From: a virus | Virus genome (UHGV): UHGV-0327824 | Length of the DNA: 13,131 bases | Reading direction: 5' to 3' (one strand) | The notes under the pieces: model-generated | Told to the model about the DNA's origin: nothing | Seen by the model: only the letters and a program-made list of their open reading frames with translations | The model's database searches: none | Translations under genes and position numbers: made by a program | Shown: positions 402-13,131 of the stretch, piece by piece | How positions within the stretch are numbered: position 1 is the first letter of the stretch | Layout of the letters: each line of letters starts with the position of its first letter

Positions 402-3224
402 ATGACGACAGAGTACATCAGGGACTGGCAACAACCGCGCCACGCAGTAGGACGTGAAGGAACGGAGATCCCCGCACCTGAATCCGCACTTTCCTCCTGG
501 CTGGATGCCTACCGGGCAGAGAACGAGCGCCGCCAGGAAATGGCTGATGCGGCGTTCTCCGCCACGCCGCTGGGCAACCTGATTAATAAAAGCCTGGACG
601 CACAGGAAAAACAGGACAAAACAATCACACTGGCAGGAGACGCCAGAAAACAGGCACGCGGCGCGGTAGATGAGGCCATGGCCTCACTGCGCCTGCTGCC
701 GTCCTATCTGCGCGATCCGCTTATTCGCCACCTCTCCTTCCTGCGCAAAAAACAGGAAGCCGATCGTCAGAAAGGAAAAAACGCCAGGCAGGCAGAACGC
801 TATGCGCGTGGGACCCTGCGCAAAATATTCGAACGTCTGGAGCGCACCGATCACCGCTGGCTGACATCGGGTTATCGCTCCCTTGCCGGACGTGAACGCC
901 TGGACGATTTGCTTTACCTGCCGCAACTCAACAAACACCAGATACAGACGCTGGCCACCATGACGGCGGCGATGTTCAGCAGCACCTTCGAAAAACTCTG
1001 CGATGGTTTTGGCGCGACTGATGGCGAGCTGACCATGGATGTAACGCTGAAGGTGTATCAGATGCTGGCCCGCATGGCATTACATCTGCACACCATGCCG
1101 CCACATTATGACGCACTGACAACAGACAAAGACCGGAGGAACGAACCAGACACGGAGCTGCTGCCGGGCGCAATTCTTCGCCTGACCTGTGCGGAATGGT
1201 GGAAGCGCAAACTGTGGCTTTTACGTTGCGAGTGGCGGGAAGAACAACTCCGCGCCGCCTGTCTGGTTTCCAGAAAAACATCGCCCTATCTGAGCCAGGA
1301 CGCGTTAAGCGAGTTTCGCGCACAGCGCGAGAAAACACGCGATTTCCTGAAAAGTTTCATGCTGGAAAACGAAGACGGGTTCACGATTGATCTCGAGACA
1401 GTGTATTACGCGGGAGTAAGTAACCCGGTTCACCGTAAGGCAGAAATGATGGCCACCATGAAGGGGCTGGAACTTCTGGCCGAAGCCCGTGGCGACAAAG
1501 CGGTGTTTCTGACTGTCACCTGCCCGTCAAAATACCACGCCACAACAGAGAACGGTCATCCGAATCCCAAATGGAACGGGGCCACCATGCGCGACTCCAG
1601 CGATTATCTGGTTAACACGTTTTTTGCGGCGGTCCGCAAAAAACTGAACCGCGACGGCCTGCGCTGGTATGGCATCCGCACGGTGGAGCCTCACCATGAC
1701 GGCACCGTGCACTGGCATATGATGGTCTTTGCTCATCCGGAAGAAATCGACAGCATCGTGGCCATCACCCGCGATATTGCCATTCAGGAAGACCGCCACG
1801 AGCTGGGCAATGATATTACTCCGCGCTTTAAGGTGGAGTATGTCGACGGCTCAAAAGGCACACCAACCAGCTATATCGCGACCTACATCGGAAAAAACCT
1901 GGACAGCCGCGCCGTCGATGGCATCGACCCGAAAACGGGCAAGCCACGCGTTGACCACGAAACCGGAAAATCAATGGCCGAGAGCGTGGAGCGCGCCATC
2001 GGCTGGGCGCGCCTTCACCGGGTCCGTCAGTTCCAGTTCTTTGGCATCCCCTCCCGTCAGGTGTGGCGTGAACTGCGCCGCCTTGCCAGCCAGATGGCAC
2101 GCAATCCGGAAGGCCCGCAACGGCTGAAAGATGATGCAATGGATGCGGTACTCGCTGCCGCCGATGCCGGGTGTTTTGCCTCCTACATTGAAAAACAGGG
2201 TGGCGTGCTTGTTCCACGCAAGGACTACCTGATTCGCACCGCCTACGACCTCGCAGATGAGCTGAACGATTACGGCGAACAGAGCGTACAGATTTACGGG
2301 ATCTGGTCACCACTCATCGGGGAATCCTCCCGTGTGTGCACGCATCCGGATAACTGGAAGTTGGTAAGACGTAAACCAGAACCAGAAGACAACGCCCACG
2401 AAAATGGTTTTGACCTTCAGGGCGGCCCTGCCGCCCCTTGGACTCGTGGCAATAACTGTCCCCGTGTACAGGAAACGGACAACAACGGGACAGAACAGCC
2501 GGAAGAACGGCCAGCACCGTGGCCGCAGCTTCCTGACGGCGTTGACGTGAACGAATGGATGCGCTCACTGAAACGGCACGAACGCCGGGCGCTGATGCGT
2601 TCGCTGCGTGACAAACAGGCAAAAAACAGCAGTGATGGAATGCAGAGCTGGACACAGAGCCGCAAACAGCAGCGGCCTTTGCCTGATAACCACGAATTAC
2701 TCGCTAAAGAATGGCGGGAATCTGCCGAATCTCTCGGCCTGCATATCGGTGAACAGCAGATGCAGCACCTGTTACGGGGCGGCAGCCTGTACGTTGACGG
2801 CAGCATCATTGCACCGCAGGGATTTGAAATTGTACGCAAACCGGATACCCGCCCGGACAGCCGAATCACGCAGCTCTGGCAGCGCCTGAGCCGTAATCAC
2901 GGCGTAAGCAGCACGGAGATCCGCCATAACCCGGTCGCCAGCTATCTGGAACAGCTGGGGGCATCAGACCCCGAAGCCGCCGCACGTCTGGCATCCACAC
3001 TTCAGCAGGACCAGAACACCATGACCCCCCCCGTTACCGTGCTTTCTGACATGCTGCGCGCCATCCGCGACGCAGAGCACGCACAGAGAATCAGTGAAAC
3101 CACTGAACGTGCCCGCCGCAAAGCAGACCTGCTGCGGGGTGGCCTGACCAGTGGAAACAAAAAACAGACAGAAACGGGATTCACAAATCCCGTAAATGAG
3201 CAAAAAACGCGCCGCGATATATGA
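402..3224 (+). CDS. A: P2 gpA-family rolling-circle replication initiation endonuclease (940 aa)
   Basis: Translation contains a HUH-type motif (VHWHMMVF) followed by paired tyrosines (YIATYIGKN), as in P2/186 gpA. Context supports it: Ogr, D, FI, FII, E in the same window. About 180 aa longer than P2 gpA as I recall it (about 761 aa). Confidence 0.88.
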   Translation: MTTEYIRDWQQPRHAVGREGTEIPAPESALSSWLDAYRAENERRQEMADAAFSATPLGNLINKSLDAQEKQDKTITLAGDARKQARGAVDEAMASLRLLPSYLRDPLIRHLSFLRKKQEADRQKGKNARQAERYARGTLRKIFERLERTDHRWLTSGYRSLAGRERLDDLLYLPQLNKHQIQTLATMTAAMFSSTFEKLCDGFGATDGELTMDVTLKVYQMLARMALHLHTMPPHYDALTTDKDRRNEPDTELLPGAILRLTCAEWWKRKLWLLRCEWREEQLRAACLVSRKTSPYLSQDALSEFRAQREKTRDFLKSFMLENEDGFTIDLETVYYAGVSNPVHRKAEMMATMKGLELLAEARGDKAVFLTVTCPSKYHATTENGHPNPKWNGATMRDSSDYLVNTFFAAVRKKLNRDGLRWYGIRTVEPHHDGTVHWHMMVFAHPEEIDSIVAITRDIAIQEDRHELGNDITPRFKVEYVDGSKGTPTSYIATYIGKNLDSRAVDGIDPKTGKPRVDHETGKSMAESVERAIGWARLHRVRQFQFFGIPSRQVWRELRRLASQMARNPEGPQRLKDDAMDAVLAAADAGCFASYIEKQGGVLVPRKDYLIRTAYDLADELNDYGEQSVQIYGIWSPLIGESSRVCTHPDNWKLVRRKPEPEDNAHENGFDLQGGPAAPWTRGNNCPRVQETDNNGTEQPEERPAPWPQLPDGVDVNEWMRSLKRHERRALMRSLRDKQAKNSSDGMQSWTQSRKQQRPLPDNHELLAKEWRESAESLGLHIGEQQMQHLLRGGSLYVDGSIIAPQGFEIVRKPDTRPDSRITQLWQRLSRNHGVSSTEIRHNPVASYLEQLGASDPEAAARLASTLQQDQNTMTPPVTVLSDMLRAIRDAEHAQRISETTERARRKADLLRGGLTSGNKKQTETGFTNPVNEQKTRRDI
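3172..3196. promoter_or_regulatory. Palindromic site copy 1 (AAACGGGATTCACAAATCCCGTAAA), inside the 3' end of gene A
   Basis: Arms ACGGGAT / ATCCCGT are exact reverse complements with a 6 nt spacer; a near-identical copy lies 73 bp downstream. Confidence 0.45.
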
Positions 3225-3300: not shown

Positions 3301-4260
3301 ATGAAAATTTGTATCGACGACGGCTCCACCAACATCAAGCTGGCATGGACTGAGAATGGCGAACGCCGCAACGCCATCAGCCCGAACAGCTTCAAGTCGG
3401 AATGGTCTGCGCCGTTCGGTGGCATGCAGCCCGCGAACTACATGCTTGATGGCGTGCGCTATGGTTTTGATCCGGTTAGCGATCGCTTTGTCCAGACGAC
3501 CGACACGCAATACCAGTACAGCGATGTGAATGTAATCGCCATTCATCACGCGCTGGTCAAATCAGGCATCACGCCACAGGAGGTGGATGTGGTTGTCACC
3601 CTGCCACTGAGCGAGTATTTCGACACAAACGCACAGCCGGACATGGCCAACATCAACCGCAAAAAAGCGAACGTTATGCGCCCGGTGGAGTACCAGAACG
3701 GCGAAGCATTCACTATCCGTAACGTGCGGGTTATGCCTGAATCCATTCCGGCTGGCTTTAAAGCACTGGCTGACATGAGTCCGTTTGAATCCCTGCTGAT
3801 TGTGGATTTAGGCGGAACCACGCTGGATGTGGCAAAGGTTCAGGGGCAACTGGCAGGTATCAGCCAGGTGTTTTGCGATCCACACGTAGGCGTCTCCCTG
3901 ATGGCCGGTGCCGTGCTGTCGGTGATGGCCGCTAACGGTATGCGTACCAGTCACCACATCGCCAATACCATTATCGAACATCGCCATGATGAAGCCTGGT
4001 TGCGCCAACACATCCACAATGACGCGCATTACGCCAGCCTGATGGCGGTTATTCGTGAAAAGGAAGAAACACTGAAACAACGCGTGATCCGCGCGCTGGC
4101 GGGTTTTTCGGGTTACGGGCGGGTGATGGTTGTCGGTGGCGGGGCGGAGATTGTGGCACCCGCTATCCGCGAAGCCTGCGGAGTTAATGTGACTTTCATC
4201 GCGGACGAGGTGCCACAGTTTGCTCTGGTTAATGGGCTGTACGCAATGGACAAGGAGTAA
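3301..4260 (+). CDS. parM: Actin-like plasmid segregation ATPase, ParM/StbA family (319 aa)
   Basis: N-terminus MKICIDDGSTNIKLAW matches the ParM/StbA phosphate-1 motif (R1 ParM begins MLVFIDDGSTNIKLQW from memory). Further shared blocks: ISPNSFK, YSDVNV..HHAL, RKKAN, VMPESIPAG, SLLI(V/I)DLGGTTLD, GVSL, V(M/V)V(I/G)GGGAE, LVNG(M/L)Y. RBS AAGGAAAA before the ATG. Confidence 0.85.
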   Translation: MKICIDDGSTNIKLAWTENGERRNAISPNSFKSEWSAPFGGMQPANYMLDGVRYGFDPVSDRFVQTTDTQYQYSDVNVIAIHHALVKSGITPQEVDVVVTLPLSEYFDTNAQPDMANINRKKANVMRPVEYQNGEAFTIRNVRVMPESIPAGFKALADMSPFESLLIVDLGGTTLDVAKVQGQLAGISQVFCDPHVGVSLMAGAVLSVMAANGMRTSHHIANTIIEHRHDEAWLRQHIHNDAHYASLMAVIREKEETLKQRVIRALAGFSGYGRVMVVGGGAEIVAPAIREACGVNVTFIADEVPQFALVNGLYAMDKE

Positions 4261-4264
4261 ACCA

Positions 4265-4579
4265 ATGACGACACCAACCAGACGGATAAGTTTCTATCTG
4301 AAGCCAGTCGCCGTCAATAGTGAACGGGAGGCGTGTAATTACCTCGACAGCCTGCCAGCCTCTGAACGCAGCCGCGCGCAACGCGCGGCCTTTCTGGCCG
4401 GGCTGGCACTCATAAAACGCGATCCTGCATTTGCCTATTGGTTGGCCGAATGGCCGGAAGAAGGAGCTGCGCCAGCCAAGAATAATATTCAGAGTAAATA
4501 TGCCAGCACACCTGCCACCGGAAGCAATCACAGCACTAGCGAGATAAGAAAGAACATTCAGTCATTTTTCCCAGAGTGA
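4265..4579 (+). CDS. parR: ParR/StbB-like centromere-binding adaptor (104 aa)
   Basis: Directly downstream of the ParM-like gene (4 nt gap, RBS GGAG). Resembles R1 ParR as recalled: ISFYLKP vs IAFKLNP, LDSLPASERSRAQRAAFLAGLAL vs LDSIPQGERSRLNRAALTAGLAL. Start taken at ATG 4265, not the longer in-frame ORF from 4220. Confidence 0.7.
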   Translation: MTTPTRRISFYLKPVAVNSEREACNYLDSLPASERSRAQRAAFLAGLALIKRDPAFAYWLAEWPEEGAAPAKNNIQSKYASTPATGSNHSTSEIRKNIQSFFPE

Positions 4580-10170: not shown

Positions 10171-10327
10171 AGCTTCAGCCCCTTGTATCCGTTAAATGAT
10201 TCGGCAACAATCATCACCCACCACGCGCGTAATCTCACCCCTGCGCCGTTCTCCCGCCACGGCGACAACAAAAAGCAGTAACCCCCTCCGCACGCACATG
10301 CGACCATGCCGCACAGGGAGGGAGCAG

Positions 10328-11437
10328 ATGACCGACACCACCATGCAATTGCTCAGTCAGGGCACAGACCCCGTAAAAATGCCGGATTTTGATATTCTCG
10401 CGGAGGGTAAAACGCTGTCAGGCGTGGCAGAGCGCCTGATGAGCCTGTCACTGACCGACAACCGGGGATTTGACGCGGACCAGCTCACCATCACGCTGGA
10501 TGATGCGGATGGTCAGTTGCAGCTACCGCCACGGGGCGCGCGCCTGACGGTTCTCATTGGCTGGAAAGGAGAACCGCTGACAGAAAAAGGCACTTACATT
10601 GTTGATGAAATCGCTCACGAAGGACCGCCGGACAGGCTGACTGTTTCAGCCAGAAGCGCAGATTTTCGGGATGAATTTAACGTTAAACGTGAGGTGTCCT
10701 GGCATGATGTGACCGTTGAGCGTGTGGTATCCGCCATCGCTCATCGGTATGGTCTGAAACCGCAAATCAGCGAAATGCTGATGGATATCGAAATCGACCA
10801 CGCCGACCAGACCGAAGAAAGCGACATGTCCTTCCTTACGCGCATGGCGGAAATGCTGGGCGCAATCACCACGGTAAAAAGCGGCAATCTGTTATTCATC
10901 ATGCCAGGTGGTGGCGTGAACGCACAGGGCCAGCCGTTGCCCTCGTTCGCCATTACACGCAGCAGCGGCGATCGCCATCAGTTCCGCATTGCTGACCGCG
11001 AGGCGTATACGGGGGTACGCGCCTACTGGCTTGATCTTAATTACGGGAAAAAGAAAAAAGTCAGCGTGAAACGCCGTAAACCGCCAAAACCCAAAAAGGA
11101 GAAAAGCAGCAGCCGTGAAGGTGATTATATGGAAGGCGCGGAAGGCAATGTGTTTGTGTTACGCAAGACTTATCAGAACGAGCAGGCAGCAAGACGCGCA
11201 GCGGCGGCAAAGTGGCAGCAACTACAACGCGGAGCCGCATCATTCTCCATCACGCTGGCGCGTGGACGTGCAGAACTCTACCCCGAAATGCATGGCACGG
11301 TAACAGGATTTAAAAGCGAGATTGATAATAAGGACTGGATCATTGCAAAAGCCGAGCACACCATTGATAACAGCGGTTTTACCACGCAGCTTGAGCTTGA
11401 GGCAAAAATCCCGGAATGGATAGCGGAAACAGAGTGA
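10328..11437 (+). CDS. D: P2 gpD-like tail/late control protein D (369 aa)
   Basis: Start chosen at ATG 10328 with RBS GGAGGGAG 3..10 nt upstream, not the longer ORF from 10196. Size close to P2 gpD (about 387 aa). Immediately followed by ogr, as in P2. Confidence 0.85.
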   Translation: MTDTTMQLLSQGTDPVKMPDFDILAEGKTLSGVAERLMSLSLTDNRGFDADQLTITLDDADGQLQLPPRGARLTVLIGWKGEPLTEKGTYIVDEIAHEGPPDRLTVSARSADFRDEFNVKREVSWHDVTVERVVSAIAHRYGLKPQISEMLMDIEIDHADQTEESDMSFLTRMAEMLGAITTVKSGNLLFIMPGGGVNAQGQPLPSFAITRSSGDRHQFRIADREAYTGVRAYWLDLNYGKKKKVSVKRRKPPKPKKEKSSSREGDYMEGAEGNVFVLRKTYQNEQAARRAAAAKWQQLQRGAASFSITLARGRAELYPEMHGTVTGFKSEIDNKDWIIAKAEHTIDNSGFTTQLELEAKIPEWIAETE

Positions 11438-11477: not shown

Positions 11478-11738
11478 ATGTTCCGTTGTCCGCTTTGTGG
11501 CGCATCTGCCCGTATCCGCACCAGTCGTCCGGAAAATGATTCAAACACCGTGCGGCAAAAGTATTACCAGTGTAACAATCTGGAATGCGGCGTATGCTTC
11601 TCAACACTGGAAGCTTTCCATAAATTCACATCAAAACACGCCTCCGGCGTTCACTCTTCAGAAGGTATCCCGTGGCATGAGCTGCCAGCTTCACACAGGG
11701 GAAACAATCAGATGAGTTTGCCTTTATCTCAGAATTAA
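11478..11738 (+). CDS. ogr: Ogr/Delta-family zinc-finger late transcription activator (86 aa)
   Basis: N-terminus MFRCPLCGASARIRTSR...YYQCNNLECGVCF matches P2 Ogr (MFHCPLCQHAAHARTSR...YHQCQNVNCSATF) with the C-x2-C...C-x4-C zinc finger. RBS AAGGGAGG before the ATG. Confidence 0.88.
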   Translation: MFRCPLCGASARIRTSRPENDSNTVRQKYYQCNNLECGVCFSTLEAFHKFTSKHASGVHSSEGIPWHELPASHRGNNQMSLPLSQN

Positions 11739-11928
11739 CAGGCAGAATTGCCGGAGTAACAAAAAAGCGATAGATTACGCGCGGGTGCCTTTCGGCTGAT
11801 GGTCGGAGGGAATACCCGAAGGCCAGATGTGGAAAGGCCCCGGAAAACATTTCTGTTTAACCGAGGCCCTGACCATCTAACCTTAGCAAGTGATAGGTTA
11901 GCGCCTCCCTGAAAAAGGAGCAAGCGCT

Positions 11929-12069
11929 ATGTCGCAAAAATCGCTTATGGCCATCACGTTCTGCGTGACGGCAATCCTCATCATCTGGATGCTGCACGGT
12001 TCGCTGTGTGAAATACGGATGAGCTTCTGGGGAGCGGAGTTTGCGGCGTTCTTACAGTGTAAGCAGTAA
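11929..12069 (+). CDS. hok: Hok/Gef-family type I toxin (46 aa membrane peptide)
   Basis: MSQKSLMAITFCVTAILIIWMLHGSLCEIRMSFWGAEFAAFLQCKQ: hydrophobic TM segment, then SLCEIR and AAF as in Hok (..[27 protein letters not shown]). RBS AAGGAG 9 nt upstream. About 165 nt structured leader with a small upstream ORF (11799..11912); a stable hairpin follows the stop (12079..12100) and a terminator at 12159..12190. Below the ORF track's size cut-off. Confidence 0.7.
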   Translation: MSQKSLMAITFCVTAILIIWMLHGSLCEIRMSFWGAEFAAFLQCKQ

Positions 12070-12158
12070 GGAAACCGCGACGGGGGAGCAATCCCCCGTC
12101 AATCGGTTGCCAGGGTAAGGTCGATAAGGCACCCTATCTCACAGACATGAACAACAAA

Positions 12159-12190
12159 CCCGCAGCGTAAGAACTGCGGGTTTTCTTTTT
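12159..12190. terminator. Bidirectional intrinsic terminator between the hok-like locus (+) and the secreted-protein gene (-)
   Basis: Stem CCCGCAG / CTGCGGG with an 8 nt loop; TTTTCTTTTT on the plus strand and a T-rich tail (TTTGTTGTT) on the minus strand. Confidence 0.65.
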
Positions 12191-12258: not shown

Positions 12259-12540
12259 TTACTCAGCATTCTCCTGCTTCCATTGCCGGATCATTTCATC
12301 GGTAACATCACCCTCATAACATACCACGTCATACCCTCCATTACGGCTATATGCACTGCGTCCACCACATCTACTACCATTCCTTGCATGATTATAAGGA
12401 CACGCACAATTGCCTGGATAAGATTCAATGGATTCTTTAATTATTTCTTTTTTGATCTGAGCATCAGACTTTCCTGTTGCTGCATATCCGCTAAAAGATA
12501 CTAAACAAAGGCAGATTGCCATTAATAAACCACATCGCAT
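12259..12540 (-). CDS. Small secreted cysteine-containing protein of unknown function (93 aa precursor), AT-rich gene
   Basis: Start taken at the internal Met giving a signal peptide (MRCGLLMAICLCLVSFSGYAA | TGKSD). Mature part about 72 aa with four Cys (NCACPYN..RCGG..VCYEG). Markedly AT-rich against its surroundings. The ORF-track N-terminal extension to 12654 has no RBS. Confidence 0.55.
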   Translation of the reverse strand: MRCGLLMAICLCLVSFSGYAATGKSDAQIKKEIIKESIESYPGNCACPYNHARNGSRCGGRSAYSRNGGYDVVCYEGDVTDEMIRQWKQENAE

Positions 12541-12769: not shown

Positions 12770-12926
12770 ATTAAAAAGATAGATTAGCGCAGGTACCTGT
12801 TGGTGGATTGCAGGAGGAAAAATGAAGTCGAGTGGAAAAATCCCAGAAAAATTTTTGTTTAACAGAGGTCCTGGCTCACTATGCGAAATACGGAGGAGCT
12901 GCAGAAGAATTCTGCTTCATCCTTAG
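12770..12926 (+). pseudogene. Deletion remnant of a second hok-type locus (leader fused to the hok C-terminal coding part)
   Basis: The leader is about 75-80% identical to the first locus's leader by eye (GATAGATTA.., ..TTTCTGTTTAACCGAGGCCCTG vs ..TTTTTGTTTAACAGAGGTCCTG), then jumps to sequence matching the hok 3' coding part (TCACTATGCGAAATACGGAGGAGCTG vs TCGCTGTGTGAAATACGGATGAGCTT). The TM-coding part is missing and the reading frame differs. Confidence 0.5.
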
Positions 12927-13012
12927 AGTTTAAACAGCACGTGCACTACCATTGTTTCTGCATATCGCCACACCATCGCCACTCAACCGCCATTGCACAA
13001 AATACAAATACG

Positions 13013-13034
13013 AAAAAACCACCCGAAGGTGGTT
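13013..13034 (-). terminator. Intrinsic terminator downstream of the tRNA gene (minus-strand transcript)
   Basis: Minus-strand reading: stem ACCACC / GGTGGT with loop TTCG, then TTTTTT; about 45 nt after the tRNA CCA end. Confidence 0.7.
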
Positions 13035-13078
13035 TCACGACACTGCTTATTGCTTTGATTTTATTCTTATCTTTCCCA

Positions 13079-13131
13079 TGGTACCCGGAGCGGGACTTGA
13101 ACCCGCACAGCGCGAACGCCGAGGGATTTTA
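13079..13131 (-). tRNA. leuZ: 3' portion of tRNA-Leu(UAA), leuZ-like; gene continues beyond the window end
   Basis: Reverse complement reads ..TAAAATCCCTCGGCGTTCGCGCTGTGCGGGTTCAAGTCCCGCTCCGGGTACCA: anticodon loop with UAA, a long class II variable arm, T-arm GGTTCAAGTCC, acceptor 3' strand and encoded CCA. Only about 53 nt are in the window. Confidence 0.85.

Follow-up and report, generated by a model that had tools for sequence, protein, structure and literature searches.

Positions 11748-12190 of the window (by which we mean the whole stretch of 13,131 nucleotides that was analysed) very probably constitute a hok/sok-type type I toxin-antitoxin module, which a P88/P2-like prophage carries as an accessory gene between its ogr and its attachment end. 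The toxin gene itself belongs to an ordinary and already annotated Hok-family locus, whose peptide cluster has been catalogued and toxicity-tested. The one mildly novel point is the way in which translation is switched on in a family that has no mok. The features on which this assignment is based are collected in Table 1.

Table 1. Features of the window, in order of position (coordinates are those of the window; strand as + or -).
Feature	Position	Strand	Remarks
gpA	402-3224		
Partition pair (ParM and partner)	3301-4579	+	ParM 3301-4260; partner 4220-4579
Tape-measure fragment, tube, sheath		-	between partition pair and gpD
gpD	10196-11437		
ogr	11478-11738		Pfam Ogr_Delta, 52 bits
Putative hok promoter	11748-11776	+	-35 TTGCCG 11748-11753, 17-nt spacer, -10 TAGATT 11771-11776
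Predicted full-length hok mRNA	11783-12190	+	about 408 nt
hok leader	11783-11928	+	146 nt
tac-like 5' element	11783-11796	+	GGGUGCCUUUCGGC; pairs with 12120-12134
Predicted Sok-like antisense RNA	11830-11888	-	single-stranded 5' tail of about 20 nt, hairpin, then UUUCC
ucb-like internal element	11832-11841	+	alternative partner of the mRNA 5' end
Leader hairpin	11836-11868	+	GGCCCCGG...CCGAGGCC; helix 5; GC>AU covariation in 6 sequences
Predicted sok promoter	11895-11923	-	-35 TTGCTC 11923-11918, 17-nt spacer, -10 TAACCT 11900-11895
SD-sequestering local hairpin	11905-11920	+	anti-SD CUCC 11905-11908 pairs with GGAG 11917-11920
hok coding sequence	11929-12069	+	46 aa, MSQKSLMAITFCVTAILIIWMLHGSLCEIRMSFWGAEFAAFLQCKQ; Pfam PF01848
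Downstream box inside hok	12034-12049	+	pairs with start-codon region 11929-11944
Hairpin just after hok stop	12079-12100	+	9 bp; helix 13, 5 covarying pairs
fbi-like 3' element	12120-12134	+	GUCGAUAAGGCACCC; pairs with 11783-11796
Intrinsic terminator	12156-12190	+	10-pair stem (12156-12183), then TCTTTTT
93-aa ORF	12259-12540	-	phrog_27544, 194 bits; function not assigned
Degenerate second hok locus (pseudogene)	12773-12937	+	found by blastn within the window
Terminator near attachment end	13015-13036	-	

The window is taken from a P2-like prophage of Escherichia coli (P88/Xuanwuvirus type) and represents its right end. Its DNA is present at 100% identity in E. coli TW10598, beside tRNA-Leu/Cys/Gly, pgsA and uvrC, and the prophage is integrated beside tRNA-Leu (leuZ). 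From about position 13010 on the sequence belongs to the core chromosome and is shared by 5425 of the 5426 complete E. coli genomes. The segment 13010-13131 forms the junction between attachment site and core chromosome and matches the attP regions of mEp390, phage 520873 and others; within it, the 3' part of the tRNA-Leu gene on the minus strand begins at 13079 and is cut by the end of the window. Between hok and the attachment end lies the minus-strand 93-aa ORF. The N-terminus of its product resembles a signal peptide and the C-terminal part is rich in Cys; the product belongs to no Pfam or NCBIfam family, and sequenced phage records contain no match to this stretch. An earlier note on this DNA had placed the toxin locus immediately after ogr, and the 10 nt that separate the end of ogr from the putative hok -35 hexamer agree with this. 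The same note put the locus next to a partition cassette and proposed stacked stabilisation functions. Such a cassette exists in the same prophage (ParM matches StbA_N with 275 bits, and its partner is the partition protein phrog_2515), albeit about 7.3 kb away rather than adjacent; because of this distance and because the prophage is integrated beside tRNA-Leu, we regard stacked stabilisation as unsupported speculation. The location of the cassette directly 3' of gpA, in a chromosomally integrated prophage, is odd for an integrating P2-like phage.

The peptide encoded by hok matches the Pfam HOK_GEF profile (PF01848) with 30.2 bits (E 3.5e-7; gathering cutoff 22 bits), residues 7-44 aligning with profile positions 5-42 of 42, and it matches PHROG 251, 'MokW-like host killing', with 80.3 bits. 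Its best NCBIfam match is chromosomal HokA of E. coli K-12, where the 33.3 bits obtained with the equivalog model NF007290 stay far below the cut-off of 89, so that the present gene is not a hokA orthologue. Both the transmembrane segment and the SLCEIR...AAF motif that the earlier note had read in a Hok/Gef-like peptide of 46 aa are found in it: the best hydrophobic 17-mer, residues 6-22, has a mean Kyte-Doolittle value of 2.59, compared with 2.66 for R1 Hok, and in an alignment that includes R1 Hok residues C27, E37, A39 and A40 are invariant, while S25, L26 and E28 are nearly so (at least 90%). RefSeq annotates a Hok/Gef family protein, WP_000078910.1, under DNA 100% identical to the locus.

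For comparative analysis, 47 distinct relatives were assembled and aligned from the mRNA 5' end to the 3' element. An alignment-based search yielded 7 loci in genome contigs and 80 in viral contigs, nearly all 98-100% identical; the diverse relatives were drawn from contigs encoding homologous proteins, and identity to the window ranges from 72 to 97% among 18 clustered representatives. An intact ORF of 46-47 codons is present in all 47, with dN/dS values of 0.15-0.38 relative to the window, and the peptide is therefore maintained: it is a 46-aa member of the Hok/Gef family under purifying selection. The peptide group corresponds to cluster 72 of a recent survey, a high-abundance cluster whose representatives were toxicity-tested (Escalera-Maurer et al., 2026 preprint, 10.1101/2025.08.07.668861). 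One of the 45 homologues tested there, 72_1621, was reported to be toxic on induction, and none of the three non-toxic sequences among the 45 is 72_1621 (10.1101/2025.08.07.668861, Table S2 and text). Since 72_1621 and the window peptide are only one residue apart (T7 against M7), the toxicity that the earlier note had proposed to look for has in effect been reported for a near-identical variant.

The elements surrounding the coding sequence follow the order that the earlier note had described, a long structured leader in front and a strong hairpin and a terminator behind (Table 1). Transcription of hok is predicted to start at about 11783, at GGGTGCC. The promoter assigned to it is a candidate read from the sequence, an 8/12 match that lies under the threshold of a sigma-70 consensus scan and was not called by it; position and conservation argue for it, a TAGAT, TAGAA or TAGAG hexamer occurring at a constant distance from GGGTGCC in the relatives. 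The full transcript folds with a minimum free energy (MFE) of -176.3 kcal/mol (z -6.74 against shuffles), and the consensus fold of the 47 relatives, obtained with RNAalifold and an explicit pair count, comprises 73 pairs with 98.6% of cells paired. Compensatory changes occur at 21 of these pairs, as compared with a mean of 10.4 in shuffles (0 of 500 as high) and at most 11 when the partners are slid.

Closure of the message between its two ends accounts for helices 1 and 2, which are 98-99% paired in the 47 sequences. In the perfect 9-bp core, which is nearly invariant, the first nine bases of the mRNA are complementary to 12126-12134, and in the extension all five pairs covary (UA>CG, CG>GC and GC>AU, in 12 sequences). 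The leader hairpin contains an SD-like GAGG (11863-11866), which nearly all relatives share, and is complementary to the terminator hairpin of the predicted Sok RNA. Further downstream, the start-codon region is paired with the downstream box (codons 36-41) in helix 8, whose 14 pairs are formed in 99.8% of cells; 8 of them never vary, 5 vary on one side and none on both, and covariation is accordingly neutral on this helix. By analogy with R1, processing of the mRNA is expected to leave the post-stop hairpin as its 3' end.

When the RNA is folded after truncation at its 3' end, 11783-11793 pairs with 11832-11841 instead, the leader hairpin is opened and CCGAGGCC is freed. This alternative helix is also conserved (97.4% of cells paired in the 47 relatives), and two of its pairs covary in 10 sequences. 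The mRNA 5' end has covarying partners at the 3' end and inside the leader; columns 10-11 of the 5' end covary with both, with the 3' element as well as with the internal element, and this is the signature expected of the switch between full-length and truncated mRNA in R1 hok. The leader structure that the earlier note had anticipated among homologues is thus conserved, with tac/fbi-type and alternative pairings that covary. If the locus operates like hok/sok of plasmid R1, as summarised in PMC9841398, the full-length hok mRNA would be inert until slow 3' trimming strips off the 3' element, whereupon the 5' end would pair with its internal partner instead. The leader hairpin would then open and expose the target of an antisense Sok RNA of about 58 nt, transcribed from the conserved minus-strand promoter, and pairing with Sok would lead to cleavage by RNase III. 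Once the supply of Sok stops, Hok would be made, insert into the inner membrane and depolarise the cell.

A conserved Sok-like antisense gene is predicted on the minus strand. Its promoter sits where the R1 sok promoter does relative to the hok SD, and the -10 hexamer reads TAACCT in 43 of the 47 relatives, TATCCT (complement AGGATA) in three and TAAGCT (complement AGCTTA) in one. The -35 variants TTGCTC, TTTACT and TTGCCT all keep the 17-nt spacing in the alignment, which was read by eye. A sigma-70 consensus scan did not call this element either; it is an 8/12-type match whose backing is its position and its conservation. With the ends placed according to the positions of promoter and hairpin, the Sok RNA would fold with an MFE of -24.9 kcal/mol (z -3.75). 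Of the antisense gene that the earlier note had thought worth searching for, a promoter-like element with conserved spacing is thus present on the minus strand, and its expression is a prediction.

Among known systems, we compared the locus with R1 hok/sok (the parB locus); an R1-type locus aligns recognisably with the present one in pairwise comparison. The toxins are 33% identical and share the N-terminal transmembrane helix and the SLCEIR...AAF core; at the RNA level the two loci have in common the 5'-3' closure of tac and fbi together with the alternative pairing of tac/ucb type, and the succession of post-stop hairpin, fbi and terminator. The predicted antisense gene of the present locus also resembles that of R1, in a promoter that overlaps the hok SD region, has hexamers 17 nt apart and carries a -10 of the form TAnCCT, and in a GCCUCG...CGGGGC hairpin of the antisense RNA. 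The R1 locus is plasmid-borne and encodes a Hok of 52 aa, whereas the present one is prophage-borne and its 46-aa toxin carries an extra C-terminal Cys (QCKQ). Unlike R1 hok, the present gene owns a strong Shine-Dalgarno sequence, AAGGAG, 8 nt upstream of its ATG. R1 has a mok leader ORF, which the present locus lacks at the equivalent site, and the hok/sok architecture claimed in the earlier note stands as far as tac/fbi and the alternative pairing are concerned, with Sok as a prediction and without the canonical mok leader ORF.

The distance between the two types is also apparent from covariance models. At the gathering threshold, Rfam gave no match in the whole window; below it, the leader model RF01794 aligns over its full length with 11783-11942 on the plus strand, at 42.7 bits (E 7e-8) versus a gathering score of 59. 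The R1-type locus (L104, 332-503) reaches 87.2 bits, while two other members of the 46-aa family score 42.1 and 38.3. With only 38-43 bits for this family, standard Rfam annotation misses the locus. The model, named 'sok antitoxin', in fact describes the strand of the hok-sense leader.

What the module does for the prophage could be the killing of cells that have lost it, help with lysis after induction, or the exclusion of other phages. One prophage hok locus has been tested experimentally, hokW-sokW of the Stx2 prophage Sp5 in E. coli O157 Sakai, likewise a prophage-borne hok/sok type I module, and it aids lysis after induction (PMC8621323). SokW has its own promoter and acts as antitoxin in a partly RNase III- and Hfq-dependent manner; after mitomycin C, sokW falls and HokW rises, and phage release is halved when the locus is missing (PMC8621323). 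A functional module that mainly serves host lysis and phage release after induction, and not post-segregational stabilisation, is hence conceivable here as well, and the orientation of hok, on the same strand as the late-gene activator gene ogr and starting shortly past its stop codon, would make read-through from late transcription possible. We nevertheless consider it rather unlikely that this is the main role. HokW is a different Hok of 51 aa, and the Stx-phage relative of the present gene is a separate one, a version about 82% identical in nucleotide sequence that is found in many Stx phages as a 46-aa gene downstream of lom; for the same reason, reading these Stx-phage matches as hokW was rejected. 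Moreover, the promoter-like element of its own and the closed fold of the mRNA should blunt expression by read-through.

In R1, hok is translated only if ribosomes have translated mok as far as the hok SD (PMC9841398). We therefore sought mok in the 47 relatives, in three frames and at the R1-equivalent site and with near-cognate starts included, and found nothing conserved. In none of the 47 does an ATG, GTG or TTG located 4-12 nt after GAGG open an ORF that reaches the hok SD; a near-cognate codon alone follows GAGG in 16, mostly AUU, and in the window AUC-UAA occupies the place of the R1 mok start. A mok-frame ORF does begin at ATG 11799, which is nucleotide 17 of the mRNA; no SD precedes this ATG, and the Sok target lies downstream of it. 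The window version of the ORF is closed by a TGA (11910-11912) 17 nt before the hok ATG, and in about half of the relatives the ORF starting from or near this ATG overlaps hok or stops just short of it. The TGA is present in only 3 of the 47 distinct relatives (the window, L028 and L037), the others having CGA, CAA or GGA. The hok SD is in turn engaged in a local hairpin with its anti-SD, which is present in the MFE folds of both the full-length and the truncated RNA and whose outer stem (AGCGC/GCGCU) corresponds to consensus helix 7. As a tentative proposal, to which we would give well below even chances, the prophage Hok cluster may run the mRNA refolding switch of R1 without a mok leader peptide, the freed GAGG lacking a start codon and hok being translated from its own hairpin-masked SD. 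The freed GAGG could then be a standby or loading site for ribosomes, or the target of Sok only.

The same observations might be taken to mean that hok is silent or decaying here, its toxin never translated since mok coupling is missing and the SD is locked in a hairpin, as in several inactivated chromosomal hok loci. The TGA in the mok frame, the AUC-UAA at the mok-start site and the persistence of the SD/anti-SD hairpin in both folds would fit such a copy, as would a clearly degenerate sister copy 850 nt downstream. We think this improbable, as the putative promoter, tac, fbi, the ucb-like element, the predicted Sok promoter, the SD, the ORF and the terminator are all intact in the window, the conservation of the ORF and its dN/dS values hold for every one of the relatives, and the covarying RNA pairings imply ongoing selection on regulation. 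The absence of mok is family-wide and no lesion peculiar to the window copy. Least of all is hok a small ORF that arose by chance in a spacer between genes, beside a terminator, for although it is short and the 2-kb region has 42 listed ORFs of 20 aa or more, this reading is refuted by the Pfam match (E 3.5e-7), by the 67 homologous clusters that a protein search returned from Escherichia, Shigella, Salmonella, Klebsiella and Citrobacter, and by purifying selection together with covarying RNA structure.

The sister copy matches 11764-11871 with 72% identity (E 3.5e-13) and 11998-12066 with 68% (E 7e-6). What is left of it corresponds to the leader and to the 3' half of the coding sequence; an internal deletion of about 126 nt has taken out the sok promoter and, of hok, the SD, the ATG and codons 1-23. 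A chance ORF, 12822-12926, joins leader sequence to 'GSLCEIR'. The copy is situated between the attachment end and the phrog_27544 ORF, and about 615 genomes carry it together with the same prophage. We also considered the downstream repeat as the relic of an older prophage end (ogr' plus a minus-strand ORF); this idea was dropped, as the matches to ogr and the ORF had E-values of at least 0.38 or were unreported and as the relic always accompanies the same prophage. The survey that defined cluster 72 reports an enrichment of hok in prophages as well as 'islets', groups of copies within 2 kb (10.1101/2025.08.07.668861), a pattern matched by the pair of intact gene and relic in the window. In two Salmonella loci (L098, 1001-1631, and L099, 1001-1635), two intact 46-aa hok genes are separated by about 490 nt; each possesses tac and fbi elements, and the pairs are tandem hok islets.

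The 461-nt locus is widespread: megablast against 5426 complete E. coli genomes found it in 1546, and the feature annotated over it is in every case a 'Hok/Gef family protein'. It is also carried by Escherichia phages P88, Chuche, P884B11, PhiR44_2 and 500465-2 and by Citrobacter phage Shae_phiSM; in P88-like phages hok directly follows the tail genes, and in phage records the present gene bears the label 'MokW-like host killing'. In Salmonella prophages the order gpD-ogr-hok is repeated at prophage ends. About half of the 80 viral contigs (L012, L027, L029, L033 and many other IMG/VR loci) end 3 nt after the hok stop codon. Gene-based calls of prophage boundaries therefore cut off the hok 3' UTR with fbi and the terminator.

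As RefSeq and phage records already name the gene, identification of the toxin has little significance beyond its correct annotation. It does carry a warning, namely that Rfam at its gathering score and gene-based prophage boundaries miss or truncate the hok locus. The cluster 72 study dealt with coding sequences only and left mok, Sok and mRNA structure unassigned (10.1101/2025.08.07.668861); what is provided here for the 46-aa family is a coordinate-level map of regulatory RNA elements that published surveys leave unassigned. In this family both states of the hok mRNA switch covary despite the absence of mok.
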